A model generated the notes under the pieces. It did no database searches. It had not been told where the DNA came from and saw only the letters and a program-made list of their open reading frames with translations. 64,000 bases of DNA from an uncultured Candidatus Saccharibacteria bacterium (lineage in GTDB: Bacteria > Patescibacteriota > 4484-211 > JAGQKX01): positions 202,403 through 266,402 of the forward strand of contig CAYMOT010000001.1 in the NCBI GenBank assembly GCA_964392315.1, in the 5' to 3' direction. Below are positions 19,043-64,000 of the stretch, piece by piece. Each line of letters begins with the position of its first letter. Positions within the stretch are counted from its first letter, which is position 1. A program made the translations under genes and the position numbers.

Positions 19043-19077
19043 AATAAATATTCCTACTACGAGTGTACACGGTAAAA

Positions 19078-23593: not shown

Positions 23594-23918
23594 AGCACCT
23601 GCATAACTGTCAACGAATGATTCCTTTGTTCACAACAGCATTCACGTATTAGTGGATAACTTTACCTAGCATGTGTACAACTTATCGTAACGAGAACGTT
23701 AATGTGTATAACTTTTTATTAAATGTGTACTTATTAGTTGTACACATAGTTATGCTCTTTTTATTCTCAAGGAAAGGGGTACTACAAAGCCAAAAATTCC
23801 GCTTATTAACAAATAAACATCACTACTATGTACTGCTACTATTTCATAAAGAAGAGAAAGTAGATAATGTTGTATTCAGAAAATTATGAGTGGTTGTCTG
23901 AGGTGATTTATCTCCCAG
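23594..23918. promoter_or_regulatory. Putative replication origin (oriC): an AT-rich unwinding region with several DnaA-box-like 9-mers between the divergent dnaA and dnaN genes.
   Basis: 8/9 matches to TTATCCACA or its complement at 23650-23658 (aGTGGATAA) and 23703-23711 (TGTGtATAA). Weaker 7/9 matches near 23617, 23738 and 23862. The 23700-23900 stretch is strongly AT-rich. Confidence 0.55.
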
Positions 23919-30670: not shown

Positions 30671-30672
30671 AA

Positions 30673-42600: not shown

Positions 42601-44047
42601 ATGTAGCTCCTCGAGGATTTGTGGAATAACCAACCGTGTCGTCATAAAAAATGTAGGTAGAGAAACTGTTTTGTGTGTAATCTTGTGGGTTAGTACCCGA
42701 CGTTGTGACTATGTCAGTTGCACAATTACCCAAAACAGTTAGAGACACGCGAGGGTACGTGAACGGTTGTCTATTGTCACATTGTGTACCGAGTCGTCCC
42801 CCATCGACCATTCCATATGACTGTGTATTGACCATGCTCACATTTCCTAGATTCGGCCCTGCAAATGCCCTCCCTGATTGTTGGATTACTCGTCCCCAAA
42901 GAATAAGTTTGTTCTGCAGTAATGCAATGTCATTCCTAATAGCTGTTGGTTCAACCAACTTGTACCAATCGTTCCCTAAATCAACTGTTCCATTTATATC
43001 TGTATCACGTGAAACTCGCACGACACCAAAGCCTATTTGTGTTGACTTGATTTTAGTATTGTTGTCCATAAGATCAGATTGATATGTCGTGCCCCCTTCT
43101 CTTCGCCAAATTGTTACGGCGTATACTCCGGGAGGTGCGAAAGCCATAAATATCCGATCGTTTCGCGTATGGTCAGCTGTGTTAGTAATTGCCTCAAGAG
43201 GGTGTGTGGTGCGTCCAGCAACGATAAGGTTGTCACCAGGATACAAGTCTCTACTTCCAGCGTTAATATAATCAAACCACACCCTGCGAGCCACTAGTTC
43301 ATAGGCACTATCATCAGAAAAATTAACACCTCCATACATTTGTACATGTTTAGACGTAATCTTCAGTGTAGTTGTCGGTATGAGCGGGAAGGTATTAATA
43401 TTATTTGCTATATCAACCCTTGTTTCTTGTGTTAAAAAGGATAATCCTAAACGCACTTCTTCCTGTAGCTGGGTGTAGATAGCGGTTAAATTGGAAGCAT
43501 CACCAATGTTGTATGAAAAAACAGAACCAATGCGGTCGGGATCAGGGTTGGTAGTCGAAGGTAGTTGTGGCATTCGAAAAGGCACATCAAGGCCTTGGAT
43601 TGCTGTCGCATCGCAAGGTGCTACTACAAAACTGACACAGTCAGTACGTAGAACCCTGCCCGATCCGACATCGTAGCGGAATGGGAAATAGACGCCGAAT
43701 TTTTGTCCATTAGGAAGACCCTGCGCTTGAAACGATCCATCCGCTCTAACTTGTGTGCGAACCGCAAGGTTGTTGATGATAAATGAAGAGCCTCCCCAAC
43801 TGTCATATGCATACACGTATACAGGAAGACCAGCCATTCGTTGATAGGCAGCGCTGGGGTCATACGCACTTCCTACAAAGGCAGGTATGAATTGTCCAGA
43901 AAACACCGCCGTATTGTTTGCCGACTGCGACGATTGTGCAGAAACTGACGGCGGTGTTAAAACCTGGACAATGGCGATGGTCAAGAGAAGTACGCTTACT
44001 AATCTCACGCATCTTTCCACTAATAAAAGATATCGACTTGGCAGCAT
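39647..44047 (-). CDS. Giant VirB6/TrbL-like polytopic channel protein: signal peptide, a ~840 aa extracellular N-terminal domain, a multi-transmembrane core, and a cytoplasmic C-terminal region ending in a Gly-rich tail.
   Basis: 1466 aa. Signal or anchor (LVSVLLLTIAIVQVLTPPSVSAQS). Residues ~850-1120 contain six to eight hydrophobic helices (IIFVFLLLLIGINHALGYD..., GGIVAITSFLSTVISTGVATFL..., AVLAGALAILGLVVSLLAVFLG...), typical of VirB6/ConG. C-terminus ...PAAPSGGGGGTGGGGGRTP. Confidence 0.6.
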   Translation of the reverse strand: MLPSRYLLLVERCVRLVSVLLLTIAIVQVLTPPSVSAQSSQSANNTAVFSGQFIPAFVGSAYDPSAAYQRMAGLPVYVYAYDSWGGSSFIINNLAVRTQVRADGSFQAQGLPNGQKFGVYFPFRYDVGSGRVLRTDCVSFVVAPCDATAIQGLDVPFRMPQLPSTTNPDPDRIGSVFSYNIGDASNLTAIYTQLQEEVRLGLSFLTQETRVDIANNINTFPLIPTTTLKITSKHVQMYGGVNFSDDSAYELVARRVWFDYINAGSRDLYPGDNLIVAGRTTHPLEAITNTADHTRNDRIFMAFAPPGVYAVTIWRREGGTTYQSDLMDNNTKIKSTQIGFGVVRVSRDTDINGTVDLGNDWYKLVEPTAIRNDIALLQNKLILWGRVIQQSGRAFAGPNLGNVSMVNTQSYGMVDGGRLGTQCDNRQPFTYPRVSLTVLGNCATDIVTTSGTNPQDYTQNSFSTYIFYDDTVGYSTNPRGATFDPFLNEPLWDKTPIKTKEVISTNGPLQVDITATAPKSDPTVKGILIEVIKNTSVPAGLNAQRNCRSYNATVSLADPNEIRNIDADNIEKFSADSKCFIHIPHDKLVPIEGITGGLIDPPLSLRIMIDGTGLNPKEIITPYNGSALVEFTGANAVTLSQYTPPVPSGYKLLGFIPVRTIMPGVDRAYAATPTVADIIVRFKGASSYQTATVHNSLGEHLYNVSEDQLRDKSGEWSLIFPLEMRDPDTACPTGSFVSPELCRRNVEASNTYTISVTADDKVLSETFVTRPDVEQGVAVGTPNTWTADFRPPCQILEERLEAEHQAELQRNLVPAGWTEPEKHMYNVGIRIGFVFKGFEAVRIPVLGCRIANGFTELAGKGLQTLRNILILEPLTVSTGVIVTWNIIRGVANIIFVFLLLLIGINHALGYDIKSWGANVMLPQLVIGIIFANLSVLIVQGVLDVNNILTAWIFAIIFDVLQTTGISTNAIAGAGAAGGIVAITSFLSTVISTGVATFLTSVVGTGGSIIIPIIGAVLAGALAILGLVVSLLAVFLGRYLIIWVITIVAPLFLALSVLPWFRSMRNLWIKTLLPLAFMQTITALFIAIGILLVSKTAEADSLFVQAGVFLIGGGTLFMSTKSASLAAQFLGGGGLAGQALGMLQGIGKGLGGKVQNMASGVSDYTSLDAVEERREKGYIRSATQRGRETRLKREAEERGETYVRPLVERLPFAGSRIAEAKEKRERKFDASLKKAEAAGIKAGTDLDYNLPTTDAPLLKRLYGGQQYAAAEQQLRKKVLPSVDIVGRTGLGAQQQKAIHTGLDLSINDPNRIINFGKLPQYSGGKLARWSKREVDSGIAPAGTKAGAVKLSTSEFRGTHAQYLAELGRRSGNASLGSVKSASELKKAPGDAHGIYMEAMALALKQNPADVQGALPPLPGQRDRRDIQGLKKLYQEGARYNRDFAATPTPAAPSGGGGGTGGGGGRTP

Positions 44048-44080
44048 AGTCTTAATAACTAATGTCCTGGATTAGCTCAT

Positions 44081-44455
44081 TTAAGCTACCCCAACCAGCG
44101 ATTGAAGCCCAGGGATAAGCCCAATAATAAACCTCCAGAGGGCATAAGCTGCTGCTACAATGATAAGTCCGATTACTGCGTTTGTAATACGCTTTCGTGC
44201 TGCTCCTACGTTATCTTCATTGTCACCTGCGGTTAGATAGGTGAATGCACCCCAGAATAAGTAAAGCAATACTGCGACAGCGGCAACAACGAAAACAAGG
44301 TCAATGCCACGTCTGATTAAATCTCCAAAATCAGTAAATCCGGTACTTGGTCGAGAAATACCTGTGAGTAGCTGTGCGTGAACGGGAGCGGCTGTTGCTA
44401 ATGTTGCAATGCCTGTAGAAGCTGTAATCAATGCACTTTTTATTTTATCTGTCAT
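44081..44455 (-). CDS. VirB2/TrbC-like pilin paralog 1 (signal peptide plus two hydrophobic segments).
   Basis: Signal (ALITASTGIATLATAAPVHAQ). Hydrophobic segment 1 (LVFVVAAVAVLLYLFWGAFTYL). Conserved LTAGD motif. Hydrophobic segment 2 (AVIGLIIVAAAYALWRFIIGLIPG). Confidence 0.5.
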   Translation of the reverse strand: MTDKIKSALITASTGIATLATAAPVHAQLLTGISRPSTGFTDFGDLIRRGIDLVFVVAAVAVLLYLFWGAFTYLTAGDNEDNVGAARKRITNAVIGLIIVAAAYALWRFIIGLIPGLQSLVGVA

Positions 44456-44522
44456 GCGGTTCCACCTCCTTTGATACTTAACTCAGAATAGCATACGCTA
44501 TACGGCGTCGCAATAGCTGTGA

Positions 44523-44930
44523 TTAGGTAATGAAATTTTTTAATCCAGGGATCAAATCTAGAATGAGCTTGAAGATAATAAATACGCTGCCTACACCCAC
44601 AAGCCCAACAATAGACCATGTAATGTTACTACGTGCTTTTTCCAGTTTCTCAGTACTATCCCCAGCGGTTAGATAATCAAACGCTGCCTTAAAGAAGTTA
44701 AAGAGCAATATTATGGCCCCAAACCCAAGGGCGCCCGTTACCATAGTGGTAATGAGTTGACCTAAGACTAACAATGTGCAATGAGGCCACGACAGGATTT
44801 CGCCATCAGGTAAGCCGTCACAGCTAGGAAGAGTCCCTCCGCCTTGAGCATACGCGTTATGAGAGTGAACCGTAAACGTAAGAAACAAGACAAATACTAT
44901 TGGTAAGAATAGAAGCAGGTTTTTCTTCAT
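44523..44930 (-). CDS. VirB2/TrbC-like pilin paralog 2.
   Basis: Signal (LLLFLPIVFVLFLTFTVHSHNAYAQ). Same architecture with YLTAGDSTEKLEKARSNITWSIVGLVGVGSVFIIFKLILDLIPG. Confidence 0.5.
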   Translation of the reverse strand: MKKNLLLFLPIVFVLFLTFTVHSHNAYAQGGGTLPSCDGLPDGEILSWPHCTLLVLGQLITTMVTGALGFGAIILLFNFFKAAFDYLTAGDSTEKLEKARSNITWSIVGLVGVGSVFIIFKLILDLIPGLKNFIT

Positions 44931-44934
44931 TGTA

Positions 44935-45330
44935 TTAAGATCCTGTAATTACAATCTTCCATGAGTCAGGAAGGATGGACTCAAATGCCCTAATAAAAAC
45001 ATATCCACCAACTACTATAACAAGCCCCACCATAGACTGGGTGAGTGCCTCGCGGCCGTTTTGCAATCTTTGCGGGTCTCCTTGAGCAGTAATAAACATA
45101 AAAAATCCGGCGGTAGCTCTATATATAGAGACTAAAACGCCAATTAAGATCATTAAGTCAAGCATAAAATTTGCAAAATCTTCGACATTGACACAACTAT
45201 CGGTGATCGCGACGTAGGTGGCATCGTTAGGACAATTAACGTTTGGCGTGGGGCGCTGGGCGTATACGGTATTCAGGGAAGCTAGAATGAGGAAAAGAGC
45301 GACACATCCTGGAATTAATATTCTCTTCAT
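44935..45330 (-). CDS. VirB2/TrbC-like pilin paralog 3. ATG at 45330 gives a canonical signal peptide; the track start at 45399 is over-extended.
   Basis: MKRILIPGCVALFLILASLNTVYAQ signal. FITAQGDPQRLQNGREALTQSMVGLVIVVGGYVFIRAFESILPD matches the other two paralogs. Confidence 0.5.
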   Translation of the reverse strand: MKRILIPGCVALFLILASLNTVYAQRPTPNVNCPNDATYVAITDSCVNVEDFANFMLDLMILIGVLVSIYRATAGFFMFITAQGDPQRLQNGREALTQSMVGLVIVVGGYVFIRAFESILPDSWKIVITGS

Positions 45331-45395
45331 ATAGGTATCATACCAACACAAACATAAATGTGAAATGTACACATTTGTGTAAATGTACCGAAGTG

Positions 45396-47624
45396 TCACT
45401 GTACTTTAACTAAAATACTTTCTCCTTGCTCAAATACATGAGTCCCTTGGGAGAGGAGAAGGTCGGTCTGAATATCTGGATATTTGTCTCTTTCAAGTTT
45501 TGAGATGTAGATGTATGAAACATTATACTTCCTTAATAACTCTGCTCTTTTTGTCTGGTCCGTCGTTGTATAGATCACACGTACATCTTCAACCCGTTGA
45601 GCGACCGTATCTGAGCCGAATGTCTCTAACACACGTGATGGAGGTTCCACTGGTTCTGCATACGAGCCTCTCCATAACCATTCGTGTACTGGCCACCCCA
45701 TAACCGTGGGGAGTCCAGTATTTGATGCGATTCGGGCATAGTCTGTATAGCTGTCTCCGACTGCTTCAACAATAACTGGCTGTCCTGTAATATTTTTGTT
45801 TATCCAATCAATCGCCGCGGCATCATGTTTAAGTGTTTTCGTTACGTATGCAGTGCCATTGAGGCCTTTATATTCGCTGAATGCGTCGGTTACGGTTTTT
45901 ATTGCCATGTAAGGATACAGTAACGTAGAACCGATGAGCAGATAAGACAGCAACACATCGAGTCGCCAGAGAACTTGGAGTGATTCTTTTTTTATGGTGT
46001 AGAGCATCCGAATAAATGCGTATGCGCTTGCAATAGATAACAAAATCCACGCTGCATAATAGAGTTTGAACATCGTATTGGCACGATAGTAATCAGGTAC
46101 GTAAATATCTTTGACGTATATGATTTCTGGTGCTATTAAGAGTGCAATTCCTAATCCGATTAGTAAAAGAGCGAATGTATCGCTCGAATTCCTCGTTGCT
46201 TGTTCTGGCGTGTTGCCGTCAGAAGGTTCGTTCTTAACGGAGATTGATACTTTGAGCGCCCCTGCAATTTTTTGTACGATTCGTTCTTTCATGTTTCTTA
46301 TGTGCAGAAAGCGTGCCAGTGTTTGACGCAACGCAAAAATAACGAAACTGACCGCGATAAACAGATACATTCCCCAAAGTATGAGGAATTCTTTGAGCGG
46401 AGAGAGGGTCGTTACTTTTCCGATGCCATCAGAAATTGGCTTTACGGTGAGCCAAAATGGCGCAAACAGTCCAACACTTCCTATGAGCAAAGGTATCGCA
46501 AACAGGGCGGCAGTCTCTAACGCTTCCCACCAGGCCAAAAGCCTGCTACGTGTAGAGTGTGCAATAGTGTGATACGCAAGGTACACAAACACACAGCCAC
46601 TGAGTACAAGGTATATAGGAAAATCCCAAGAGTTAGTGGCATAGCTTGTTCCTACCATAAGCGCGAGGATAGCAAGAGACAAAAGTAGGCGTTTGTTCTT
46701 GAGGCTGTGTGCACTAATGCTCAGGTTGTCCCGTGAAATAAAGAGATTACACAATATTCCAAGAGCTACGAGAACAAATGGAATATTGCTCACGTGTGCA
46801 TGCAAATCCGCCACGATAAAACTGTATACCGGGAATTCGTTGATAGTGAAAGGAATCAACCTGCTCGCTGTAGCGTACCAGTAGGTGTCTAAGGAGGAGA
46901 TATGAAGTACTGTATGAAGATTTCCGGTCAGTGCCGTAAGGATACCTCCCAGAATACCCCCAATAAATATAATAATTTTGTGAATATGCGGGAATACATT
47001 TCTGAGTAGTGTCGCGGTGATGCTGAAACTTCCCATGAATGATATTGCAAACAGGTACGCAATCTGTAGGTTATAAGTAAAATTAGGAGGTAGGTGTGAA
47101 ATCTGCGTAATTACCGCTGCGACGTAGTGTCCAAAGTAGTAATAATTAATTGGTTCGCTTGCAAAAAAATGGTCTACTGGTGGGAAATACTCAGCACGCA
47201 AGATTGAGAGCATAAACCCGTAGTCCATAAATTTTTCCAAACCATGAATGTCTGGGTTGTATGCACGGACTATGCTCCAAAAAACAAGAAGGCACAAGAA
47301 TAATACCTCACTAATGATGACTACCTTCCATGGTATTGCAGAAATAGTTGATTTTATAGATCTGGAGTGAAAAATCTGTACGCTCCAAATGAGTACCGAA
47401 ATAAGAACGGCAATAAGGATGGTGTGTAGTGGAGAGAAGCGTAGTACTCTTGTAATAGCGAGGAGCCATACAATATATGAGACTATCCCAATGCCTACCA
47501 CTTTGCTGAGGATCCATCCCTTATCAACAAATCGAGGGAGTATCGTCTTGCTCAACGGCCAGAAGCCAACTCCGAGCGCAAAGATTGCGGTATAAAATTG
47601 TAGAAATGCATAAGGATCAGACAT
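45396..47624 (-). CDS. Large polytopic membrane protein (742 aa) with a soluble C-terminal domain; GT-C-type glycosyltransferase-like (family unassigned).
   Basis: About fourteen to sixteen transmembrane helices through residue ~560, then a ~180 aa extracytoplasmic C-terminal domain. It overlaps the pilin gene by 4 nt and is the first gene of the block upstream of the type IV secretion-like genes. Confidence 0.5.
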   Translation of the reverse strand: MSDPYAFLQFYTAIFALGVGFWPLSKTILPRFVDKGWILSKVVGIGIVSYIVWLLAITRVLRFSPLHTILIAVLISVLIWSVQIFHSRSIKSTISAIPWKVVIISEVLFLCLLVFWSIVRAYNPDIHGLEKFMDYGFMLSILRAEYFPPVDHFFASEPINYYYFGHYVAAVITQISHLPPNFTYNLQIAYLFAISFMGSFSITATLLRNVFPHIHKIIIFIGGILGGILTALTGNLHTVLHISSLDTYWYATASRLIPFTINEFPVYSFIVADLHAHVSNIPFVLVALGILCNLFISRDNLSISAHSLKNKRLLLSLAILALMVGTSYATNSWDFPIYLVLSGCVFVYLAYHTIAHSTRSRLLAWWEALETAALFAIPLLIGSVGLFAPFWLTVKPISDGIGKVTTLSPLKEFLILWGMYLFIAVSFVIFALRQTLARFLHIRNMKERIVQKIAGALKVSISVKNEPSDGNTPEQATRNSSDTFALLLIGLGIALLIAPEIIYVKDIYVPDYYRANTMFKLYYAAWILLSIASAYAFIRMLYTIKKESLQVLWRLDVLLSYLLIGSTLLYPYMAIKTVTDAFSEYKGLNGTAYVTKTLKHDAAAIDWINKNITGQPVIVEAVGDSYTDYARIASNTGLPTVMGWPVHEWLWRGSYAEPVEPPSRVLETFGSDTVAQRVEDVRVIYTTTDQTKRAELLRKYNVSYIYISKLERDKYPDIQTDLLLSQGTHVFEQGESILVKVQ

Positions 47625-47632
47625 CGTTTTGG

Positions 47633-49327
47633 TTATCGAAGCTTATTATAGAGTAATGGTTGTATATTTGTAGCGTCAAATGCTGTTTTTTTAAATATCT
47701 GTACTCGTGGATGGTCATATACAGTAAAACTTTCATCGGCTTGTTGGTCGTTTCTGGAGAAACCGAAAAGATTGGGATAGGAAGTAATTTCTTTGACTTT
47801 TGAGAATCCTAACGTGCCGTCAAAAAGCAACTTGTAGTATTCAATTGTCGCGGGGTATTGGTCGGGTAGATTGGGGATAGAGTCATATAGTCGGTTGCTT
47901 GCGATAATAATATATTCAACGTGATCGAGTGTCTGAACCAACTGGGTTATCTTTGCTGGTGAATCGGGGATATATAACTCTAACGATTTGTGCTGATAGT
48001 ATTCGGAATCATAAAGTGGCAAGCTTCGATCCCAGTGCTCTACACCGAGTGTAGCGTTTCCCGGAATGTTAGAGTGAATCCACTCGCTTGCTTGAATCCA
48101 GGTGTGTGGTTTTGTGTAAATGGATATGAATGCGATTGTCCACCACATACTCGGAATGACTATTAGTAGTGTAAGAGCTGTTTGTAGCATCAGAGAACGT
48201 ATGTGGAGTATATGTACCCCGACATACGCAGCACTCATGGCAAGAAGTGGATAGAGCGGTAAGTAATATCGCATGAACTTCACCGCAGAACTGCCGAGCG
48301 ATAAAAAAAGGACACTAAAAAACAGCACGAACCACACAGAAGCCTCGAAGCGCTTGGTTTTAGAAGTCTTGATTATAGATGAATACGTAAGCGCAATCAT
48401 TCCAGTGATACCAAGAAATGTAAATGAAGGACCAAGCCCCCATCTGAATATCTGTACGACAGGATACAAGAAGGGTACTGTGTCGATATATTGAATAGTG
48501 TAGGGGAAAACAGTAGCATCCGAACGCATATCCAGTTGTGAGCCAATCTGATTGGAAAAGGTGTCAAAATCTATATACGCATAGGGTTGTAAGACAAAAT
48601 TTGTGATTAGGAATAGAGCTGCTGCCGTTATAAATAGTTCCTTAGCCTGTAGAGCAGTAAACGTATTTTCTTTCATATTACGCGAAATAAGGTAGCGGTA
48701 TACGATACTCGAAACTAAGAACGGGATGAGGATAACAGCTGTAAATTTTGTAGCAACTGCCATGCTCGTTGTGACACTAGCCCAGAGTAGATATTTTTTC
48801 TTTCCGTCCTCAGTATAGTGCAATATAAGAAGCAGCGTACCCATCATCCAAAACACCATTTGTCCATCGACGGTATAAAAGTGGGCATTTTGTATGGGGA
48901 ATACTGATAGTGCATAGACTGCCATAGCAAGTACACCTAGCAAGGTGGAACGAAAAATTTTTCGTGACAAAAATAAAAGCAGTATCAACGTGCCAATATC
49001 AAATAAGGCTGAAAGCGGGCGGCCAACCTTATAGAGGTTTCCATATTCAACAATATTTGGATCAATAACCCCCATAAGGTACGCAAGACCTTTTAGGAGA
49101 TACAACGGAAAGGAGCCATAGGCGAAAAACTTGGGATTAAGTGGACTCTCGGCGGTAAAGAAAGTCGAAAAATTTAGAGGCAACTCGAGTTGAAAAACCA
49201 TATTATAAATATGTGCTTCATCCGGATGGGGGTAGTAGCCACCATCCCAATTCAGGGGGAATGCGCGAAGCAGAAATGCCCCAAAAATAATGAAAGCCAA
49301 TATAACGGAGCGGTAGTTGTCTTTCAT
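47633..49327 (-). CDS. PMT/ArnT-family (GT39/GT83-like) membrane glycosyltransferase, paralog A.
   Basis: DE motif in the first extracytoplasmic loop (GGYYPHPDEAHIYN) as in protein O-mannosyltransferases/ArnT. About twelve transmembrane helices. C-terminal extracytoplasmic domain. Confidence 0.65.
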   Translation of the reverse strand: MKDNYRSVILAFIIFGAFLLRAFPLNWDGGYYPHPDEAHIYNMVFQLELPLNFSTFFTAESPLNPKFFAYGSFPLYLLKGLAYLMGVIDPNIVEYGNLYKVGRPLSALFDIGTLILLLFLSRKIFRSTLLGVLAMAVYALSVFPIQNAHFYTVDGQMVFWMMGTLLLILHYTEDGKKKYLLWASVTTSMAVATKFTAVILIPFLVSSIVYRYLISRNMKENTFTALQAKELFITAAALFLITNFVLQPYAYIDFDTFSNQIGSQLDMRSDATVFPYTIQYIDTVPFLYPVVQIFRWGLGPSFTFLGITGMIALTYSSIIKTSKTKRFEASVWFVLFFSVLFLSLGSSAVKFMRYYLPLYPLLAMSAAYVGVHILHIRSLMLQTALTLLIVIPSMWWTIAFISIYTKPHTWIQASEWIHSNIPGNATLGVEHWDRSLPLYDSEYYQHKSLELYIPDSPAKITQLVQTLDHVEYIIIASNRLYDSIPNLPDQYPATIEYYKLLFDGTLGFSKVKEITSYPNLFGFSRNDQQADESFTVYDHPRVQIFKKTAFDATNIQPLLYNKLR

Positions 49328-51090
49328 GTGTTATTACCCCCTTTTAGAAGGTTTTCATATGTATTGGTATCTAAGGGGTCATTTTTTTTGAAGATGTGTA
49401 CGGTCGGATGATCAAATACGTAAAACGTTCCTTCACTGGAATGTATGTTTGTCGGGCAAAGAAGTACCTCAACCGCATTTGGCAATCGTTTGCTTATGTG
49501 TTCGGGAATGATACATGCACGTGGTGCTGTTTCATACACGTGGGTAAAGCCCAAATCACCCGCAAAGAGCGCAGTGTAATAGTTAGCGGCAATAGGGTAC
49601 CTATGTGGTAGTCGTAGTGCAGCGGATGAAACTCGATCACTCGGTAATAGGATATAGTCAGTTGTTTCTAGTGTACGTGCAAGTCGTGAATAGCTGGTTT
49701 CCGACTCATCTAATTCATACATATCTATTAAAGTAATCTGAACTCCAAGGGAAGCATTAAATGGGATAATGTTCGGGTCAAGTGCTTCTGACAGAATTGC
49801 TTGATGTGGAGAAATATTCTCCGTAAGCCATTGTGCCGCTCGTTGACGGGAGTCAGGCTGTGTGTAAATCGTGAAAAACGAAACACCGCGGAATACAACC
49901 TCTGCAATTAATACCATCACGATCACGATGACCCCTGTTTTCAGGTATTGCTTTGACAGTATGAGGTACAGTTTTGAGGCGACATATATGACGGCGATGA
50001 CGAGGAGCACTAGTGCAGGTATCATATATCGCGACCATTTTACGAACATGGACATATGAAAAGCCGTGTATCCCAGAAACACATACAAAAACAAAACTAA
50101 CGCCGGATTACGACGAATGGTTCTGACTCCATAGAGTGCAATAGCGGTCACGGCTACTGTGCCAATACCAACAAATATGTATCCACTCAAGAAGGGTAAG
50201 ACGTGCCGTAATTGGTAAACAAATGGCACCGTTTCATTAAAATTTCTCGTGTAAAACACAGGCAATGTACCGGTAGCAACCCCGCGTTCGTAGTTGAGGG
50301 AGTTAACAAATGATGCATAGTCCAGCGCAACAAAAGGGTTTGTTATAAAAAAGGTACACACTATTGCCAGCATGCATCCGGCAAGATTGTTTATGAGGGA
50401 TCGAGGAAGGTGAAACATCGAGAGAATATCTTTAAATACGAGTTTTTCTCCTTTGGAAATATTCTGCAGGAATAGTATGCCAATAGGTAGTCCAATGAGG
50501 TAGAGGCTGACAATTTTTGTGCCAATAGTGAGACCAATAATGATTCCTAGCAGGAGGAAAGAACGGAAAGTAGATTTAGCATAGGCATTGATGGCAGCCA
50601 TGTAGGTGAGTACATAAAAACACGTGAGGAATGTTTCGAATGTGGCAAAGTGTGCAAATTGTATATTGCCGATTAAAAACGTATATAAGGTTGCTCCGGT
50701 GAGTGCAAACCCGCGTGATGCCCCAAGCAAACAAGATGCATAATAGATAAGGGGAATGAGAATAATTGAGGTAAGCGCAGACAGATGCCGTCCTATGGTG
50801 AGTGCTTGCTCAACCGACACAAACCATACATCCACCGCACCCTTGAATATGTTTTGGAGGACCCCAGCTGCATAGGTCACATAGATAGGAAAAGACCCAT
50901 ACGCAAAAAACTCCGGATTGGCGTTATCGGGTACATGGATGTTGCTTACTGCGTACCCGATGTTTAGTTCATCGGGATGGACGAACGAATCAGCCCAGTT
51001 TAGATTGTACAAACGGAGGACAGAACCAACGAGGACGAAGAGGAAAAGTATAATTCTATAAAAATCCTTTGTGACAAGTGGTTTAATCAT
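49324..51090 (-). CDS. PMT/ArnT-family membrane glycosyltransferase, paralog B.
   Basis: SFVHPDELNIGYAV and FAYGSFPIYV, compared with FAYGSFPLYL in paralog A. Same topology. 4 nt overlap with paralog A. Confidence 0.65.
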   Translation of the reverse strand: MIKPLVTKDFYRIILFLFVLVGSVLRLYNLNWADSFVHPDELNIGYAVSNIHVPDNANPEFFAYGSFPIYVTYAAGVLQNIFKGAVDVWFVSVEQALTIGRHLSALTSIILIPLIYYASCLLGASRGFALTGATLYTFLIGNIQFAHFATFETFLTCFYVLTYMAAINAYAKSTFRSFLLLGIIIGLTIGTKIVSLYLIGLPIGILFLQNISKGEKLVFKDILSMFHLPRSLINNLAGCMLAIVCTFFITNPFVALDYASFVNSLNYERGVATGTLPVFYTRNFNETVPFVYQLRHVLPFLSGYIFVGIGTVAVTAIALYGVRTIRRNPALVLFLYVFLGYTAFHMSMFVKWSRYMIPALVLLVIAVIYVASKLYLILSKQYLKTGVIVIVMVLIAEVVFRGVSFFTIYTQPDSRQRAAQWLTENISPHQAILSEALDPNIIPFNASLGVQITLIDMYELDESETSYSRLARTLETTDYILLPSDRVSSAALRLPHRYPIAANYYTALFAGDLGFTHVYETAPRACIIPEHISKRLPNAVEVLLCPTNIHSSEGTFYVFDHPTVHIFKKNDPLDTNTYENLLKGGNNT

Positions 51091-51098
51091 AGGGTAAC

Positions 51099-52550
51099 TT
51101 ACAGTACCTTCTTAAGTGCTGGTAAGATGATTATTCGATGGGGCCAATAAAAAGTGAAGAAAGCAGCAATTAATTGTAGTATCCCGGCCATCAAATTATA
51201 TTCCTTTACTGGCAACGTAAGGTTGGCAGCTTGTATCAGTAAATACCACACGAATAAAGAGATAAAGAAATTAAGGTAGGTCAGTCGAATGATGCCAGAA
51301 ATTGCATTGTTTGAAAGAACGACAAAGAGAGGAAGCAGCCACATAAAGTACCAATGGTTAAAAAGTTGCAAAAAGTAGAGCAAAAAGACAAGTATTAGGA
51401 TAATAATAGCGTGGAGATAGCCCTGTATTGGCTCAAATCTCTCCGTTTTTGAGATGAATGTGAGAGTGTACATAACGGTGATAACTAACCATCCACCCAT
51501 ACCTATGTATGCAACATAGAGTGCGATCTGTTCATTACCCGATAATGCAAGAATTGCACTTGAGATTGAAAAACCTAAGAGAAGTGCCTGGTTTGCTATT
51601 CCGTTGAGGATATCTGCCTTAATAACAAGATAAATGCCTGTAGCTCCTATTATTAGGACCCAAGGGAGAATAAGTGTAACAAAACGTTTTTTGCTCACGT
51701 TTTGCCATATCCAATACAGAATAATCGGTACAATAATCACCGATATGTATTTTGTGAAAATGCTCATAGTAAGCCAAAACAGTGTTTGTGCGTAACGTTG
51801 TCTGACCATCGAATATACACTTAGCGCAAAAAAGAGAATAAACAGAATATCGTTATGAATGGCACCAACGAAGGAATAGAGTATCAGAGGGCTCATGAAG
51901 ATGGCAACAATTGCTGAGGATCTTTGGGGGGCAAGCGCCTTGGATATTTTTATGACTACAAGCATGGATAGTAGGGTTAAGAGGTACGAGATTCCCTTGT
52001 AAATGAGTGTTATGGTTACGATGGGCAATGTCCGAACAGGAATGTAAATAGCAGTATGGAGCAGCAGCCATACTGGTCCATACGGGAGGTAGGGTGATTC
52101 TGGTGTTGGTGCTAGATCAGTCTGCGGATATTGGCGCGTTGGCGAATAAATTTCGGAGTAAGGATTCTCTTGATATACCCCAAGACGCTCGGAATACCAT
52201 AAGTTTGCATAGTAATCGAGTGCATCGAGCGGGTACATAAATAAAAAAGGGATTGCAGTAATGCTAACAAATGCTATCGCAGATTTTGTGCTAATGCTTG
52301 TATATGCTTTGACAAATTTTTCAAGCAATATACAAACCAAGATTAAGCAAAAACCGATAAGGATAACTTCAGTAAATGTTAACAACTCGGGAATTCTGTA
52401 TACGCGTATTCGATCCAAAATTCCTATGGGAATCAAGTATGGAAAAAGCGCCGTGTATATTACCAGGAGTATCAGTGGTGTATACCAGGGCTTAGCGAGT
52501 ATTTTGTGCCATAGCCAGTTGTGCGACGTCCTCGCCCAGTTTAACTGCAT
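51099..52550 (-). CDS. Polytopic membrane protein (483 aa), possibly GT-C-like. Function unknown.
   Basis: About twelve transmembrane helices and no large soluble domain. The track start overlaps the upstream FAD-oxidoreductase gene by 59 nt, so the true start may be an internal or alternative codon. Confidence 0.45.
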   Translation of the reverse strand: MQLNWARTSHNWLWHKILAKPWYTPLILLVIYTALFPYLIPIGILDRIRVYRIPELLTFTEVILIGFCLILVCILLEKFVKAYTSISTKSAIAFVSITAIPFLFMYPLDALDYYANLWYSERLGVYQENPYSEIYSPTRQYPQTDLAPTPESPYLPYGPVWLLLHTAIYIPVRTLPIVTITLIYKGISYLLTLLSMLVVIKISKALAPQRSSAIVAIFMSPLILYSFVGAIHNDILFILFFALSVYSMVRQRYAQTLFWLTMSIFTKYISVIIVPIILYWIWQNVSKKRFVTLILPWVLIIGATGIYLVIKADILNGIANQALLLGFSISSAILALSGNEQIALYVAYIGMGGWLVITVMYTLTFISKTERFEPIQGYLHAIIILILVFLLYFLQLFNHWYFMWLLPLFVVLSNNAISGIIRLTYLNFFISLFVWYLLIQAANLTLPVKEYNLMAGILQLIAAFFTFYWPHRIIILPALKKVL

Positions 52551-53805
52551 AGTTTGTTCCTCTATCCCATGGATATACCTGACTCATGGATGCAAGGTAT
52601 ACATGAGAGAGTGGCGTGGTGAGTGGAGGGATTTTCTTTGAGTGATCTAATCCTACAATTGGTTGTGCATAGGGTACACGCCATAGCCAGCTTTGTTTTA
52701 TATGATGCATTGAAAAATTAGGATTAATGCGTGTTAAGTAAGGAAGAGAAGTGTTTATAAGTTCCTCTTTGGAAAGCTGCATAAGGCTATGCTCCTTGGC
52801 CAGATAATTTCCTACATACACAATGTGGTTGCCTCCGTAATGCGCTCTATCAATAAAATTGGTGTGTTCTGCGACGACCAAAAACGGCCATGAAGGATCA
52901 TGAATATTGAGCCAGTAGGTGTCATCGGTAAAGAATGGTTTTTCCAGGGAGAGTATGAGTGTTTGTGCACCGATGCCCGTAAGGCCGCTATACTGGTGAA
53001 TGTATTCAGCGGGCAGGTGGGGGAAGAGCCTCATAAAGACGGGAGGCGGTGTTGTAACAATAACAGAATCAAAGTCTAGGGGGTCCATTTTGTCTGTGTG
53101 TATGGTCCATGACGAATCTGTTTGTTCGATCCTATCGATGGTGGTGTTTGTAAAAATAGCCCCATCGTTATTGCTGATGCTGTTGGCAATTAATTCCGCG
53201 AGTGCCTGAAATCCACCTTCAAAGTATGCAAGTTTTGGGGTTCGTTTATATACACGTGCCCAGAACCAGGCTAGGTTAATTTCTGTATAGTAGTCCGCAA
53301 ACTTTCCTTCCATAAGCGGTTCCCAAAGTATATGATATGCTTGACTGCCCATAAGTTTAGGGAGTACTTCATGGGCTTTCCATCGCTCCAGAAATGTCCC
53401 ATTGTGTAGTAGGTACTTGAATATTCCCAATATGAGGCCAGTGCGTAATCGTTCAGTGAAAGGAAGTGGGGCGAACTGTAATAATGCAGCGGGCGAATCG
53501 ATCTGGTAGATTTTTTCGTTATACAGACTTGACGTTTTTGGGGAAAGAATCTGAATTTTTTCTGCTGCACCTAACTCTTCTATCAGCTTGAAGATATCAT
53601 GGTCATTGGTAAACCAGTGATGATAATACCTCTCCAGATCCCATTCCCAAGATAATGGATAGTTGTCCACAAAGTGCTTAAACCCAGCTCCAAGGCCTCC
53701 TACGTAGTTCTCTTTTTCGATGATAGAAACAAGATGGCCGTTTTTGGCTAATCGGTATCCAGCGGCAAGGCCGGTAAATCCTGCTCCAATAATTGCGACG
53801 CGCAT
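52492..53805 (-). CDS. FAD/NAD(P)-binding oxidoreductase of the amine-oxidase/UDP-galactopyranose-mutase-like superfamily. ATG at 53805.
   Basis: MRVAIIGAGFTGLAAGYRLAKNGHLVSIIEKENYVGG is a dinucleotide-binding GxGxxG followed by the conserved E...GG. HHWFTNDHDIF resembles the FHTND region of UDP-galactopyranose mutases, but the assignment is tentative. Confidence 0.7.
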   Translation of the reverse strand: MRVAIIGAGFTGLAAGYRLAKNGHLVSIIEKENYVGGLGAGFKHFVDNYPLSWEWDLERYYHHWFTNDHDIFKLIEELGAAEKIQILSPKTSSLYNEKIYQIDSPAALLQFAPLPFTERLRTGLILGIFKYLLHNGTFLERWKAHEVLPKLMGSQAYHILWEPLMEGKFADYYTEINLAWFWARVYKRTPKLAYFEGGFQALAELIANSISNNDGAIFTNTTIDRIEQTDSSWTIHTDKMDPLDFDSVIVTTPPPVFMRLFPHLPAEYIHQYSGLTGIGAQTLILSLEKPFFTDDTYWLNIHDPSWPFLVVAEHTNFIDRAHYGGNHIVYVGNYLAKEHSLMQLSKEELINTSLPYLTRINPNFSMHHIKQSWLWRVPYAQPIVGLDHSKKIPPLTTPLSHVYLASMSQVYPWDRGTNYAVKLGEDVAQLAMAQNTR

Positions 53806-53846
53806 ACGGGCATTGTATAACAAATACAATAAGCAAATATACAAAT

Positions 53847-55730
53847 ATGCAAATAAACTTTTATCTAAAAAAACGGATAAGCAAATGGGTGCTGGTGCTT
53901 GGTGTCCTTTCTTTGTTAGTTACTAACAGCGTGTACCCTGGATTGATACATGGTGACGAGTTAGAGGATCTAGAAAATGATCTTCAGAATACCAGAAACC
54001 AAATTCAGGAGTATGAGAAGCAACTTAATTCTACAAAGGCTGCAGTTGAGGCGGCTAAAAAACAGGCAGTGGGATACCAAGGTGCATTACGATCCTATTC
54101 CGGCCAACTTGAATACGCCAAAGCGCAGTTAATACAGACTACTCTTGAGCTTGACCAAAAGCAAATTGAACTCGATAGCACTGCGGCAAAAGTAAAAGAG
54201 GCTACTCTTTCGGCTCAATATCATGAAGGGGTTCTAAAGGATGTGGTACGAGATTTCTATAAAAAAACATTCAATGATGAGGTATCCTATTTGCTTGTGG
54301 GTCAAACGGCAGGTGACGTTGCTCGTACATTTGTCTACAGAGAGCGTGTTTCGGACGGTCTCCGTGCTCAATTTTTTGAAATAGTCGATATGCTTCAAGG
54401 GCTTCTCGTGCAGCAAGAAAAACTCGCAATAGATAAACAAGGCTTTGAGAAACAGCGAGAAGAGCTTCTTGCACAGCAGGCACATTTAGAACGGCAGATT
54501 GTAGCAACAAGTGCTAATTTAGCAACTGCTCAGGGGCAAGAAACGCAGTTATCACAAACCAGGAGGTCGCTAGAAGAACAAATAGGAGAATTGACTCAAA
54601 AAGAACAACAGCTATTGTCGGCAAAGTCTGCTATAACCAATTCTACCAATACTGTTGGTGAAATTGAGACGGGCTTACAGAAGGTGTCGGCCCCGTCAGC
54701 AGCAAACCTCTATTCTGTTTGGACGTATGGACATCCACATCAGGTAGGCATGAGCCAATATGGTGCATATGGTAGAGCCTTAGCGGGACAAAACTATTCG
54801 CAGATTCTCCTTGCATATTTTTCTAATGTGACTATTGAAAAATTTTGGAATGATGAAGATGTTATACCTGTCCAAGGTATGGGAGATATGAGTATGAAGG
54901 AATACCTATATCGTTTAGGAGAAATGCCAGAAGGTTGGGGAAATACTGGCGGATATGAGGCGCTGAAGGCTCAGGCGATTGCTGCACGTACCTTTGCACT
55001 CAACTACATCTACTACGCATGGAATGGGTTGGCACTCGTTGATAAATCGCCAACTCCTATTTGCACGACGCAAAGTTGCCAAGTTATTGGCAACCCCAAA
55101 ACCGGAAAATGGAAACAGGCAGTTGATGAAACAGAGGGAATGGTTATCCTTTATAGTGGAAAACCAATTACCGCATGGTATTCCGCATCAGCAGGCGGAT
55201 TCGTTTTGAGTTCAGAGGAACAGTGGGGAGGGGCTCGACCATGGGCTCAGGGTAAAAATGACTTCGATCCCCAGGGCTTTGCCTATGATGGAGGCAAGTA
55301 TATAAATCCTCCAAGCGGCTCACCCTACTACCCATGGATCGCAAATGGTAACGATGCTTCTAATCAGTGGTTGGGAAGTGACATCATGGAAGATATTTTT
55401 AATGCTACATTATTGCCGGAATCCTATAAATCTAAATTGTATAACCCCGAGTATGATTATAAGAAGTGTACGCCTCCAGGTGGGACTGCTGATGGGTTAA
55501 CTACAAACGTAATTAGGGAAATCTTGATAAGTGAAGGGATTCAGCCAGTGTCCGGCTTGATCGATATACAGAATGTTGGACAAAATTCCAAACAAACCCA
55601 ACTGCTTAAAATAACCGATCAGTTTGGTGTACGGGATATTAATGCACAGTTATTTAGAGATGCCTTCAGAAGGCGAGCTCCAGGGTGTTATGATATTCCA
55701 ACAAAACGCTTCGAAATTACTAAAAGCTAG
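53847..55730 (+). CDS. SpoIID/LytB-domain protein with an N-terminal signal or anchor and a coiled-coil region. ATG at 53847.
   Basis: N-terminal WVLVLGVLSLLVTNSVYP. A ~250 aa coiled coil. Then a SpoIID-like core (VWTYGHPHQVGMSQYGAYGRALAGQNYSQILLAYF, ...ARTFALNYIYYAWN...). Confidence 0.75.
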   Translation: MQINFYLKKRISKWVLVLGVLSLLVTNSVYPGLIHGDELEDLENDLQNTRNQIQEYEKQLNSTKAAVEAAKKQAVGYQGALRSYSGQLEYAKAQLIQTTLELDQKQIELDSTAAKVKEATLSAQYHEGVLKDVVRDFYKKTFNDEVSYLLVGQTAGDVARTFVYRERVSDGLRAQFFEIVDMLQGLLVQQEKLAIDKQGFEKQREELLAQQAHLERQIVATSANLATAQGQETQLSQTRRSLEEQIGELTQKEQQLLSAKSAITNSTNTVGEIETGLQKVSAPSAANLYSVWTYGHPHQVGMSQYGAYGRALAGQNYSQILLAYFSNVTIEKFWNDEDVIPVQGMGDMSMKEYLYRLGEMPEGWGNTGGYEALKAQAIAARTFALNYIYYAWNGLALVDKSPTPICTTQSCQVIGNPKTGKWKQAVDETEGMVILYSGKPITAWYSASAGGFVLSSEEQWGGARPWAQGKNDFDPQGFAYDGGKYINPPSGSPYYPWIANGNDASNQWLGSDIMEDIFNATLLPESYKSKLYNPEYDYKKCTPPGGTADGLTTNVIREILISEGIQPVSGLIDIQNVGQNSKQTQLLKITDQFGVRDINAQLFRDAFRRRAPGCYDIPTKRFEITKS

Positions 55731-61107: not shown

Positions 61108-61809
61108 ATGTGGTTTGAGAGACTACTATTTCCTCGTAATTGTGTAGGCTGCCGACGGCGCTGGGGCTCCTACCTTTGCAGCGAATGCTTTAACAGGATT
61201 GCTTTTTGCACAACACAGTATTGCCCCAACCCAAATTGTAATAAGCCTGCGGTAAACGCAATGACCCATCCTCGTTGTGACAGTAAGTATTGCCTAGATG
61301 GGCATATAAGTATCACGCGCTACGAAGGGGTTATAAAAGAAGTACTTGAATTCTATAAACGCAGAGGTGTTTTTAAATTAGAGGCGCATATTAAAGAGAT
61401 ATTACAGACGTATTTTTTTGAGCTACGAGAAACAATTTTTGATACCGTGCCTAAACCACTTATTACCTGTGTTCCCCTCTTTAAGTATGATCGGATATTT
61501 CGTGCCTACAGCGTGGCTGAACGATTAGCAGATTTGTTGGCCGAGACAGTTGAATGCACGTTTAATCCGTCAATATTGGAGAAGCGTCTCCCTACAATGC
61601 CACAGAAAAATCTTACTCGAGCAGAGCGCCTATCGAATCTAGCAGGGGCATTTTCAGTAATAGAAAAAGATGTGTGGAGTTTTCCTAATATTGTTCTGGT
61701 TGATGATGTGTGGACTACAGGTGCTACATTACGTGAGTGTGCCAAGACGCTCAAAAAAGCAGGTGTAAAAACTGTTTGGGCGGTAACATTGTGTAGAGGG
61801 AGCACATAA
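61108..61809 (+). CDS. comF: ComF-family protein (phosphoribosyltransferase-like, ComFC).
   Basis: N-terminal Cys cluster (CVGCRRRWGSYLCSECFN...C..C). C-terminal PRTase motif (IVLVDDVWTTGATLRECAK). Confidence 0.75.
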   Translation: MWFERLLFPRNCVGCRRRWGSYLCSECFNRIAFCTTQYCPNPNCNKPAVNAMTHPRCDSKYCLDGHISITRYEGVIKEVLEFYKRRGVFKLEAHIKEILQTYFFELRETIFDTVPKPLITCVPLFKYDRIFRAYSVAERLADLLAETVECTFNPSILEKRLPTMPQKNLTRAERLSNLAGAFSVIEKDVWSFPNIVLVDDVWTTGATLRECAKTLKKAGVKTVWAVTLCRGST

Positions 61810-63744: not shown

Positions 63745-64000
63745 ATGATAGATGACCTTAAAAGCTACCTCTTTAACCTCAGGCCTTATGTTTTCCTGAC
63801 TATTACAGTAAATTGCGCTCTGTTTCTGGTTTTTACAATAAATTCAATTGATCCGGTACGAGATGATGCATATAGTTATCTATTGCCGAATATCGTCTTG
63901 CAAGGGGAAACGTTATTTGAATCGCACCAACTGCCTTTTATCAATTATTATCAACTATTAGGTTCACCGTTACTTCCTCAAGGCCACACTGGTGTGTTGT
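63745..64000 (+). CDS. 5' fragment of a membrane protein gene running off the window end; hypothetical.
   Basis: ATG at 63745. The frame is open to 64000. The N-terminus has a transmembrane helix (YVFLTITVNCALFLVFTI) and a DDAYSY motif that loosely resembles the DDAFI(S/T)FRYA motif of the neighbouring paralogs. Confidence 0.35.
   Translation, partial: MIDDLKSYLFNLRPYVFLTITVNCALFLVFTINSIDPVRDDAYSYLLPNIVLQGETLFESHQLPFINYYQLLGSPLLPQGHTGVL

Follow-up and report, generated by a model that had tools for sequence, protein, structure and literature searches.

The window analysed here, a stretch of 64,000 nucleotides from an uncultured Candidatus Saccharibacteria bacterium (contig CAYMOT010000001.1, assembly GCA_964392315.1), carries four consecutive genes for polytopic membrane proteins, P1 to P4, which lie between a gene for a flavin adenine dinucleotide (FAD)-dependent enzyme and an array of VirB2-like pilin genes of a type IV secretion system (T4SS). 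P1–P4 all classify as glycosyltransferases of the GT-C type, each of a different kind, with activities predicted from their sequences and structural models. The FAD gene, the PMT-like genes P2 and P3, and P1, a member of the family DUF2298, form an ancient module that is older and more widespread than its adjacency to the T4SS. We lean towards a role of this module in a general pathway of envelope glycosylation that draws on polyprenyl-phosphate sugars, with the pilins among its possible acceptors. The nearest named relatives are metagenome-assembled genomes (MAGs) of "candidate division WWE3", and P2 is encoded identically on the Logan contig ERR2586215_187955.

Organization of the gene run

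An earlier note on this DNA had described four co-directional polytopic genes at 45396–52550, and their placement was borne out by the layout of the open reading frames (ORFs). All of them are on the minus strand: P1 (45396–47624, 742 aa), P2 (47633–49327, 564 aa), P3 (49324–51090, 588 aa), and P4 (51099–52550, 483 aa, or 439 aa by the gene caller). The FAD gene (52492–53805, minus strand, 437 aa) is the first gene of the module. The gaps between P1 and P2 and between P3 and P4 are both 8 nt, and the 4-nt overlap of P3 and P2 that had been pointed out (49324–49327) is real, reading ATGA and recurring in the relatives L002, L003, and L005 (L-numbers denote retrieved genome loci). A second overlap of 4 nt, claimed between P1 and the first pilin gene, pilin 1 (45396–45399), requires a mechanically chosen GTG start of pilin 1 that is probably wrong. 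The gene caller places this start at an ATG near 45330, about 66 nt further on and ahead of a signal peptide (MKRILIPG...). What stands of that claim is that the genes form one tight co-directional run ending at the pilin array. Where P4 starts is not certain: against the 439 aa of the gene caller, the L002 orthologue has 482 aa, and both the L003 orthologue and P0241, a homologue with 97% identity, have 483 aa.

The 66-nt gap between P1 and pilin 1 holds a sigma-70-like promoter match on the minus strand (45337–45364; TTCACA, a 16-nt spacer, TATGAT, and a TG extended -10). Read from 45364 to 45337, it agrees at 10 of 12 positions and is the best minus-strand match in the region 43900–54200, in which the total of promoter matches is not above the shuffled expectation.

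P1–P4 as GT-C-type glycosyltransferases

Enzymes of the GT-C class take a sugar from a polyprenyl-phosphate carrier at the outer face of the membrane and pass it to an extracellular acceptor by means of acidic residues in their outer loops. By hydropathy P1–P4 are all polytopic, in agreement with the AlphaFold models of P1 and P2, and classification with hidden Markov models (HMMs) placed P1 in DUF2298/TIGR03662, P2 in PMT_2, P3 in PMT, and P4 close to MptA_B_family/GT87. The GT-C fold appears in the models of P1 and P2 and extends to P3 as a full-length paralogue of P2. Acidic residues stand in the first extracytoplasmic loop of all four proteins as the models orient them, namely E130/D134 in P1, D36-E37 in P2 and P3, and D68 in P4.

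P1 scored 359.1 bits against PF10060 (DUF2298; cutoff 27.8) and 566.3 bits against TIGR03662 (Chlor_Arch_YYY; cutoff 300.25) over residues 7–740, and the YYYxG motif of the family is present as the invariant I159-N-Y-Y-Y-F-G-H166. Four motifs are invariant in 50 orthologues: GLEKxMD (128–134), INYYYFGH (159–166), TIxEFP..DLHxH (260–277), and HEWLWR (647–652). E130 and D134 of the first of these, likewise invariant in 50 sequences, lie in a loop with two short helices that the model places outside the membrane. An AlphaFold2 (AF2) model of P1 built from 50 orthologues had a pLDDT of 90 and a pTM of 0.92, and in a Foldseek comparison with the PDB every match at E ≤ 0.001 was a GT-C enzyme, with AglB the best (6.5e-8), followed by DPY19 and AftA. 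ArnT (1.4e-3) and ALG9 came further down, and the confident matches, at probability 1.00, were exclusively GT-C. There is also a weak resemblance between the C-terminal globular domains of P1 and AglB (3vu0). Sequence and profile searches against all PDB sequences returned nothing usable for P1, and only the fold comparison linked it to solved GT-Cs. On the strength of the model, P1 can be assigned with confidence as a predicted GT-C-fold enzyme with an AglB-like architecture.

P2 and P3 share 27% identity over their full length (E 2e-48). The DE loop motif of protein O-mannosyltransferase/ArnT-type enzymes, noted previously in two of the four genes, was recovered in P2 as H34-P35-D36-E37 and in P3 as the corresponding HPDE; it is invariant in 41 homologues and sits directly past the first helix, in the first outer loop according to the model. 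Scores against the Pfam models were marginal and coverage partial: P3 reached 29.4 bits with PMT (cutoff 22.7), covering profile positions 86–200 of 245, and P2 28.6 bits with PMT_2 (cutoff 26.1). Orthologues of P3 occur in about 50 loci, and matches to PF02366/PF13231 are found throughout the homologues. Though a search of all PDB sequences with P2 yielded nothing usable, its AF2 model (pLDDT 92, pTM 0.91) matched STT3 (4e-10), PglB, ALG12, Pmt4 (3e-6), ArnT (6.5e-6), and EmbB in Foldseek. A Pfam search at E ≤ 0.01 detected neither a PMT_4TMC nor a MIR domain in P2 or P3, which have instead a conserved C-terminal extracytoplasmic alpha/beta domain of their own. Because PMT_4TMC is missing and the C-terminal domain differs, the two proteins were filed as PMT/ArnT-like and not as members of GT39. 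In P2 this domain (residues 416–564) contains many polar residues that are invariant across 41 sequences (EHWD, SNR, DESFxVYDHP), an invariance beyond that expected of a passive binding module, and a further catalytic or metal site may reside in it.

P4 and all five homologues from a word-index search have a precomputed PF26314 (MptA_B_family) match on record, although P4 had no direct match in the Pfam library and scored 18 bits against TIGR03459 (MptA), whose cutoff is 439. The word-index search gave only these five relatives and a full HMMER scan was required, which returned 752 at E < 1e-3, only five of them below 1e-30. Pfam GT87 matches 20 of 40 aligned relatives, and D68 is invariant in 40 sequences. 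A P4 profile searched against all PDB sequences gave nothing usable. From its sequence relatives, P4 is classed as a putative GT87/MptA-MptB-like GT-C.

The FAD-dependent enzyme

The enzyme encoded upstream of P4 had been suggested to resemble UDP-galactopyranose mutase, and this identity was rejected: there was no GLF match at E ≤ 0.01 and no full-length similarity to the mutase, 4dsg being aligned only through the Rossmann residues 2–54. The best family is PRK07233 (NCBIfam NF005560, 421 bits, cutoff 252), and Pfam Amino_oxidase matched at 4e-22. With a profile of 34 orthologues, the best match was the uncharacterised Pyrococcus furiosus protein 3nrn (PF1083; 2e-17), followed by amine and L-amino-acid oxidases. 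The alignments with monoamine oxidase B and phytoene desaturase span nearly the whole length, and those with PF1083 and PPOX at least the N-terminal half. By these matches, the protein is predicted to be a cytoplasmic FAD-dependent oxidoreductase of the amine-oxidase/PPOX/CrtI fold and the PRK07233 family.

The module in other genomes

When genomes were scanned for two invariant P1 motifs as patterns, at least 586 species-representative genomes proved to contain a DUF2298 relative, and 80 loci were retrieved. Statistics on the module were taken from the 52 loci of species that are not close relatives and have at least 8 kb upstream of DUF2298. An orthologue of the FAD gene (E 1e-64 to 1e-124) is present in 44 of the 52, on the same strand as DUF2298 in 42 of these 44; PMT-like genes are found in 43/52, and both together in 36/52. 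The usual order, on one strand, is FAD, PMT-like, PMT-like, and DUF2298, and the three components are kept in most of the sampled Microgenomates species. Between the PMT-like genes and DUF2298 there is usually an epimerase gene of the short-chain dehydrogenase/reductase (SDR) type (at least 22 loci) and a gene of about 180 aa. For the latter, in the Levybacteria-like loci, a HAD phosphatase was considered from the pattern FDLD...DDD seen by eye; there was no HMM match and the assignment was not used. Additional PMT_2, GT4, methyltransferase, and DUF362 genes occur in some loci.

The surroundings of the module were compared as well. Downstream of DUF2298 in 63 loci, a convergent LCP gene (LytR_cpsA_psr) was found in 36, TIM in 29, and UvrD in 10, and S20, PilN, PilO, a 98-aa gene, and a Big_13 protein are found upstream in many loci. 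About 60 Levybacteria-like species genomes contain the module with no T4SS gene within reach; there it stands beside the LCP ligase, TIM, UvrD, and FemAB genes, often with PilN/PilO. In L004, L005, and about 30 other Levybacteria-like loci, the FAD and PMT-like genes have pilN, pilO, the 98-aa gene, and the gene of the Big_13 surface protein directly upstream of them. With its Thr/Pro-rich stalk and LPPTG-like C-terminal anchor, the Big_13 protein is itself a candidate O-glycosylation substrate.

The WWE3-like genomes keep the FAD, PMT-like, and DUF2298 genes, and every flanking gene differs from those of the Levybacteria-like genomes. In the Clostridia-labelled loci L045 and L074, from MAGs that make up the most divergent group in the midpoint-rooted P1 tree, the FAD orthologue is accompanied by a PgfS/ArnC-like GT2 gene, GtrA, and a gene for a large unassigned protein, divergent from DUF2298. 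Such comparisons over larger distances (WWE3-like and Clostridia-labelled genomes) weigh more than counts within the narrow sample.

A UbiA gene lies inside the module in six loci (L086, L087, L057, L065, L069, and L056). The best matches of all six proteins were the decaprenyl-phosphate phosphoribosyltransferase (DPPR synthase, DPPRS) models NF008977/NF008978, at 182–228 bits, one of them above the cutoff; unrelated UbiA-type enzyme models reached only about 50–60 bits on the same proteins. These scores suggest that lipid-linked pentofuranose donors may be used in bacteria of the Candidate Phyla Radiation (CPR).

Proposed function of the module

In the envelope glycosylation pathway that we propose, P1–P4 would add sugars to the envelope step by step, the acceptors being exported surface proteins rich in Ser/Thr/Pro and/or a glycopolymer linked to the wall, with the HPDE motif of P2 and P3 and the GLEKxMD motif of P1 as the acidic motifs proposed for transfer. 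All four GT-Cs may act in one pathway. Its donors would be polyprenyl-phosphate sugars made by genes outside the window, and the donor-synthesis genes, a GT2 or a DPPRS-like UbiA together with a flippase, would lie elsewhere in the genome. The FAD enzyme probably acts in the cytoplasm on the lipid-linked donor, where it would catalyse the oxidation step of an epimerisation, much like DprE1 in its partnership with DprE2. The recurrence of DPPRS-like UbiA, SDR, GT2, and GtrA genes inside the module points to a single lipid-linked-donor pathway. In the WWE3-like lineage the module stands directly upstream of the pilin array and may be co-expressed with it, in a pathway that would not be specific to pilins.

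Several observations weigh against a general envelope pathway. The window copy of the module has no GT2, UbiA, flippase, or SDR gene: a phmmer search of the window with the UbiA proteins of L086 and L087 found none, the module there is also without GtrA and MATE genes, and the sole SDR-like match in the window is the N-terminus of a 1052-aa protein (14817–17975). The window by itself, having no donor-synthesis gene in the module, is insufficient to reconstruct the pathway. The role given to the FAD enzyme rests on its gene neighbourhood and on analogy, and its fold differs from that of DprE1. The 80 loci are phylogenetically narrow, and TIM, UvrD, and other neighbours are conserved as often as the module genes themselves; with housekeeping neighbours equally conserved in so narrow a sample, synteny counts within the 80 loci carry little functional weight. 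A search of the available library found no experimental or functional work on DUF2298, a family named in only two papers there and in the title or abstract of neither. Lastly, a junction of DUF2298 with a pilin gene, in all nine WWE3-like loci examined and once more, of a second origin, in the unrelated lineage of L031, argues for a closer link to the T4SS than the word "general" implies.

The junction with the pilins and alternative readings

This junction is the strongest argument for a glycosylation system dedicated to the T4SS, in which the GT-C run, or at least DUF2298, would modify the VirB2-like pilins or other surface parts of the apparatus and be co-transcribed with them, much as had been suggested before. 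We regard such a dedicated role as possible but rather unlikely. The WWE3-like loci, in which the order runs from DUF2298 through the pilins to an orthologue of a 1466-aa protein, are L001, L002/L006, L003, L007, L086, L087, L088, and L089/L008, with P1 identities down to 38%. In L086–L089 (38–42% P1 identity), T4SS_pilin genes stand directly behind DUF2298, with the 1466-aa orthologue next in L086, L087, and L089. Their glycosyltransferase side has been remodelled: P4 is missing, there are insertions of UbiA, DUF362, and TPR genes, and one of the four loci has its FAD gene inverted. The junction has been kept through this remodelling and is thus the most stable one in the class-level clade. 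The gap between P1 and pilin 1 is just 5–40 nt in L002, L003, and L007. When L008–L085 were searched with an iterated pilin HMM, no pilin gene adjoined DUF2298 except in L031, L008 and L009 ending too near DUF2298 to tell; the L031 junction is independent, since the P1 tree places L031 within the Levybacteria-like sequences. A dedicated role is further favoured by the best structural matches of P1 and P2, which are protein-modifying GT-Cs (AglB, DPY19, STT3, and PglB), and by the precedent of TfpW (bioRxiv 10.1101/2020.04.19.049825).

The pilins themselves bear on the same question. Proteins of the pilin-1 type have mature N-termini rich in Pro, Thr, Ser, and Asp, for example RPTP and STPTPEPTP. 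Pro/Thr/Ser-rich regions of this kind resemble the O-glycosylation sites of actinobacterial Pmt substrates, and the N-termini are suggestive of putative glycosylation sites. Ser/Thr contents and N-x-S/T sequons were counted in T4SS and housekeeping proteins and judged non-diagnostic; the 434-aa and 321-aa T4SS proteins are rich in sequons, and several T4SS proteins have Pro/Ser/Thr stretches. The expectation of Ser/Thr-rich targets therefore held in part, in that the pilins are not Ser/Thr-rich overall but pilin 1 has a Pro/Thr/Ser-rich mature N-terminus. Two observations on pilin genes of related loci stand beside these. In L087, a gene with matches to 23S_rRNA_IVP and bAvd-like models (11872–12237), an accessory type of diversity-generating retroelements, lies between T4SS pilin genes, and its presence could point to targeted hypervariation of one of the pilins or of an adjacent gene. 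In the WWE3 MAG locus L088, two genes (8753–10123 and 14618–15382; 456 and 254 aa) join the pilin domain to long extensions at the N- or C-terminus, one of them with a CarboxypepD_reg-like domain, and a sortase gene lies between the two, which suggests elaborated, possibly wall-anchored pilin variants.

Against a dedicated T4SS role stand, above all, the roughly 60 species that carry the same module without an adjacent T4SS gene. SpoIID, upstream of the module, is also conserved in most WWE3-clade loci, so vertical inheritance of gene order is a sufficient explanation of the junction. The promoter-like site separates P1 from pilin 1 in the window, gaps of about 400 nt precede the called pilin genes in L086, L087, and L089, and in compact CPR genomes unrelated genes often abut. 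We also know of no glycosylated VirB2-type pilin. The claim of a dedicated pathway for pilins or other cluster products is accordingly retained in part: the GT-C run does adjoin the pilins and the junction is kept, while the module at large often stands without a T4SS beside it. With the junction kept in nine loci and found again in L031, and with the N-terminus of pilin 1, the pilins and T4SS surface proteins remain plausible acceptors.

A bolder hypothesis combines these points. The WWE3-like DUF2298 would be an AglB/STT3-like transferase not recognised before that, with the PMT-like GT-Cs, glycosylates VirB2-like pilins or the T4SS surface from a lipid-linked, possibly pentofuranose, donor, the amine-oxidase-fold enzyme being a non-orthologous replacement of DprE1. 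We consider it improbable; if true, it would describe what is, to our knowledge, the first T4SS pilus with glycosylation, and a family present in at least 586 species genomes would gain a function.

It is improbable, in our estimate, that the genes are historical neighbours only, that is, independent envelope enzymes gathered by genome compaction, with the FAD enzyme and the T4SS functionally unconnected to them. Such a history would fit the conservation of TIM, UvrD, S20, and MurJ beside the module, which is about as frequent as that of the module genes together, the confinement of P4 to the closest relatives (it is absent from L086–L089 and the Levybacteria-like loci), and the variable content of the module, with its GT4, methyltransferase, DUF362, and extra PMT_2 genes. 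However, the linkage of the FAD gene and DUF2298 crosses phyla and outlasts complete replacement of the flanks, the PMT-like genes share, from the window to Levybacteria, a 4-nt start/stop overlap that suggests translational coupling, and the donor-pathway genes recur inside the module. That the polytopic proteins are transporters or other non-glycosyltransferases is highly improbable: P4 lacks a direct Pfam match, the PMT_2 and PMT matches of P2 and P3 are partial and a few bits over threshold, and the Foldseek TM-scores to GT-Cs are modest (0.3–0.5), but the probability-1.00 matches of P1 and P2 are all GT-C with transporters appearing only at probability 0.2 or below, the acidic loop motifs show no variation, matches to PF02366/PF13231 and PF26314 run throughout the homologues, and relatives of P4 match GT87, so that a transporter identity, raised beforehand as the outcome that would overturn the assignment, is largely ruled out.

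The T4SS cluster and the origin region

The pilin array consists of three genes on the minus strand. Pilin 1 (44935–45330, 131 aa) is a VirB2-like T4SS pilin with a signal peptide and the Pro/Thr-rich mature N-terminus QRPTPNVNCPNDAT; it matched PF18895 at 1.3e-3 and a clade HMM at 8e-38. The other two VirB2-like pilins, pilin 2 (44523–44930) and pilin 3 (44081–44455), scored 29.1 and 37.9 bits with PF18895 (cutoff 26.6). Next comes the gene of the 1466-aa secreted or membrane protein (39647–44047, minus strand), which has no Pfam match and trails the pilin array throughout the clade, orthologues (E 1e-70 to 1e-276) lying behind the pilins in L002, L003, L007, L086, L087, and L089. This protein may be a VirB6-like component. 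On the same strand, the cluster includes a VirB4-like ATPase gene (27756–29975; P-loop_TraG 1.4e-24, CagE_TrbE_VirB), two conserved T4SS partner genes (29981–31932), a PrgI/VirB3-like gene (31938–32459; PrgI 2.2e-11), and several genes for large proteins without a family match. Also encoded in the cluster (33743–36403, minus strand) is a protein of 886 aa that combines a Pro/Ser-rich stretch with a domain resembling GH5 cellulases (Pfam Cellulase 8.7e-10). The apparatus could use this protein, instead of a VirB1-type hydrolase, to cut the wall or glycans.

The region 21496–27762 contains rnpA, yidC, a KH/R3H Jag-like gene, dnaA, dnaN, an SH3-domain protein gene, and recF. The genes dnaA (22175–23593, minus strand) and dnaN (23919–25094, plus strand) are divergent with a 325-nt gap, recF is on the plus strand, and the minimum of the cumulative GC skew at about 22–24 kb falls in this origin region. 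The T4SS cluster begins directly past recF. The T4SS of Patescibacteria has been related to the conjugation machinery of monoderms (MPF-FATA), with arrays of VirB2-like pilins near dnaA (PMC12102498). The window shares with it VirB4, PrgI/VirB3, three divergent PF18895 pilins, and the recF-dnaN-dnaA neighbourhood, and the clustering of these genes identifies an MPF-FATA-like T4SS of this group. The main text of that study contains neither words in "glycosyl-" nor "PMT", and its supplementary text neither "glycosyltransferase" nor the terms DUF2298 and PMT; the adjacency of GT-C genes therefore appears to be unreported there.

Further GT-C-like genes and a second glycan cluster

An expansion of this protein type in the window, remarked on earlier, was confirmed, with six GT-C genes established, and as many as four others as candidates, in a stretch of about 35 kb. 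Of the further paralogues that had been listed, two are AftB-like GT-Cs by family match. G5 (59530–61104, plus strand) is AftB/LA_3751-like, with the motif FVDDAFISFRYA past its first transmembrane helix (TM1) and matches to NCBIfam NF047440 (1.3e-6) and NF041481 (6.8e-6). G6 (61991–63496, minus strand) has the motif IYDDAFITFRYA past TM1, matches NF041481 at 9e-16, and aligns with the solved AftB structure 9dlf over residues 18–269 (E 5.8e-14). The two share 31% identity (E 4e-35) and a DDAF motif past TM1. The other two listed genes are polytopic and without a family match. For the ORF at 6950–8452, no family model matched and GT-C status could not be established; the ORF beginning at 63745 (63745–64000, plus strand), whose full gene was recovered on L090, encodes a putative GT-C of 738 aa with RDDAYSY past TM1.

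Beyond the right end of the window, L090 (4110–9752) has three consecutive genes for polytopic proteins of 738, 538, and 553 aa, with the acidic motifs RDDAYSY, PLNDGGMF, and LDDPYIH past the first helix. None of the three has a Pfam or NCBIfam match, and they may be further GT-C-like enzymes. A ComF-like gene (61108–61809), encoding a double zinc ribbon and a phosphoribosyltransferase domain, lies between G5 and G6 and starts 3 nt past G5. Its phosphoribosyl pyrophosphate (PRPP)-binding fold beside arabinofuranosyltransferase-like enzymes is curious given the PRPP-derived route to lipid-linked pentofuranose. A second envelope-glycan cluster is found on the minus strand at 14817–20337; it comprises a fusion of NAD-dependent epimerase/dehydratase and DUF4012 (the 1052-aa protein), a Wzz-like chain-length protein, an RNase H-like gene, and an O-antigen-ligase/Wzy_C-like polytopic protein.

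Significance and comparison with known systems

Because CPR/Patescibacteria live attached to host cells, their surface chemistry and T4SS are central to their lifestyle, and yet CPR envelope glycans are almost unknown. The locus offers a testable idea of surface glycosylation. It defines a conserved module, open to experiment, of an amine-oxidase-fold flavoenzyme, PMT-like GT-Cs, and DUF2298, and the literature search, which covered DUF2298, CPR GT-Cs, and CPR arabinan, found no study of such a module. DUF2298/Chlor_Arch_YYY gains a confident, model-based GT-C fold assignment and a first functional context. The fixation of the module beside a T4SS pilin array in one class-level lineage provides a concrete hypothesis of pilin glycosylation; should the adjacency be only historical, the result would still be a useful, though ordinary, annotation.

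TfpW of the group IV type IV pili of Pseudomonas aeruginosa is a GT-C encoded beside pilA that arabinosylates the type IV pilin from a lipid-linked donor, and its donor pathway includes a flavoenzyme/SDR epimerase pair and a GtrA-like protein (bioRxiv 10.1101/2020.04.19.049825). The likeness to the present locus is positional, a GT-C gene beside a pilin gene, known here from the genes alone. The differences are that the pilins here are of the VirB2-like T4SS type and stand beside four GT-Cs, as against a type IV pilin and one GT-C there.

With the oligosaccharyltransferases AglB, STT3, and PglB (GT66), P1 and P2 share, in their models, a many-helix membrane domain followed by a C-terminal globular domain. 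In P1, a long outer loop carries an invariant T-I-x-E, a possible counterpart of the TIXE motif of PglB and AglB. Unlike these enzymes, P1 has HEWLWR instead of WWDYG and apparently three extra N-terminal helices, the TM-scores are only 0.34–0.38, and sequence and profile searches of the PDB gave no sequence-level match of P1 to any oligosaccharyltransferase. Actinobacterial Pmt (GT39) is comparable to P2 and P3 in the PMT/PMT_2 matches, the Asp-Glu of the first outer loop, and the polytopic GT-C fold, and candidate acceptors with Pro/Thr-rich disordered regions are encoded nearby. P2 and P3 differ from it in their marginal, partial PMT scores, in the lack of PMT_4TMC, and in the extra C-terminal domain with its invariant EHWD and DESFxVYDHP; the fold search puts STT3 and PglB above Pmt4, and the window has no polyprenyl-phosphate-mannose synthase.

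The three-component extracytoplasmic pentofuranose systems described by Kelly et al. (2024; PMC11127046), with UbiA/DPPRS, a phosphatase, DprE1/DprE2, and the GT-Cs Aft/Emb in the mycobacterial pathway of decaprenyl-phosphate arabinose (DPA) and arabinan, are alike in that GT-Cs, here by prediction, use lipid-phosphate sugars outside the membrane. Related loci contribute the DPPRS-like UbiA (182–228 bits) and an SDR epimerase, and AftB-like GT-Cs lie 7–10 kb away in the window. In the Levybacteria-like genomes an LCP ligase adjoins the module, which may be compared with Lcp1, an enzyme that serves arabinogalactan (PMC4981717). On the other hand, genes for UbiA, a phosphatase, an SDR, and a flippase are missing from the window copy, the flavoenzyme is of the amine-oxidase fold whereas DprE1 is of the VAO fold, and the GT-Cs are PMT-like, GT87-like, and DUF2298 as against GT136, Emb, and Aft. 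Since it lacks UbiA/DPPRS, the window locus may work like a pentofuranose system and cannot be filed under it. The module nevertheless hints at a DPA-like lipid-pentofuranose route outside Actinobacteria, with a different flavoenzyme. Taken against these relatives, the system is a variant of known GT-C glycosylation pathways, and its importance lies mainly in the fold and genomic context that it gives to DUF2298 and in the testable idea of CPR surface glycosylation.

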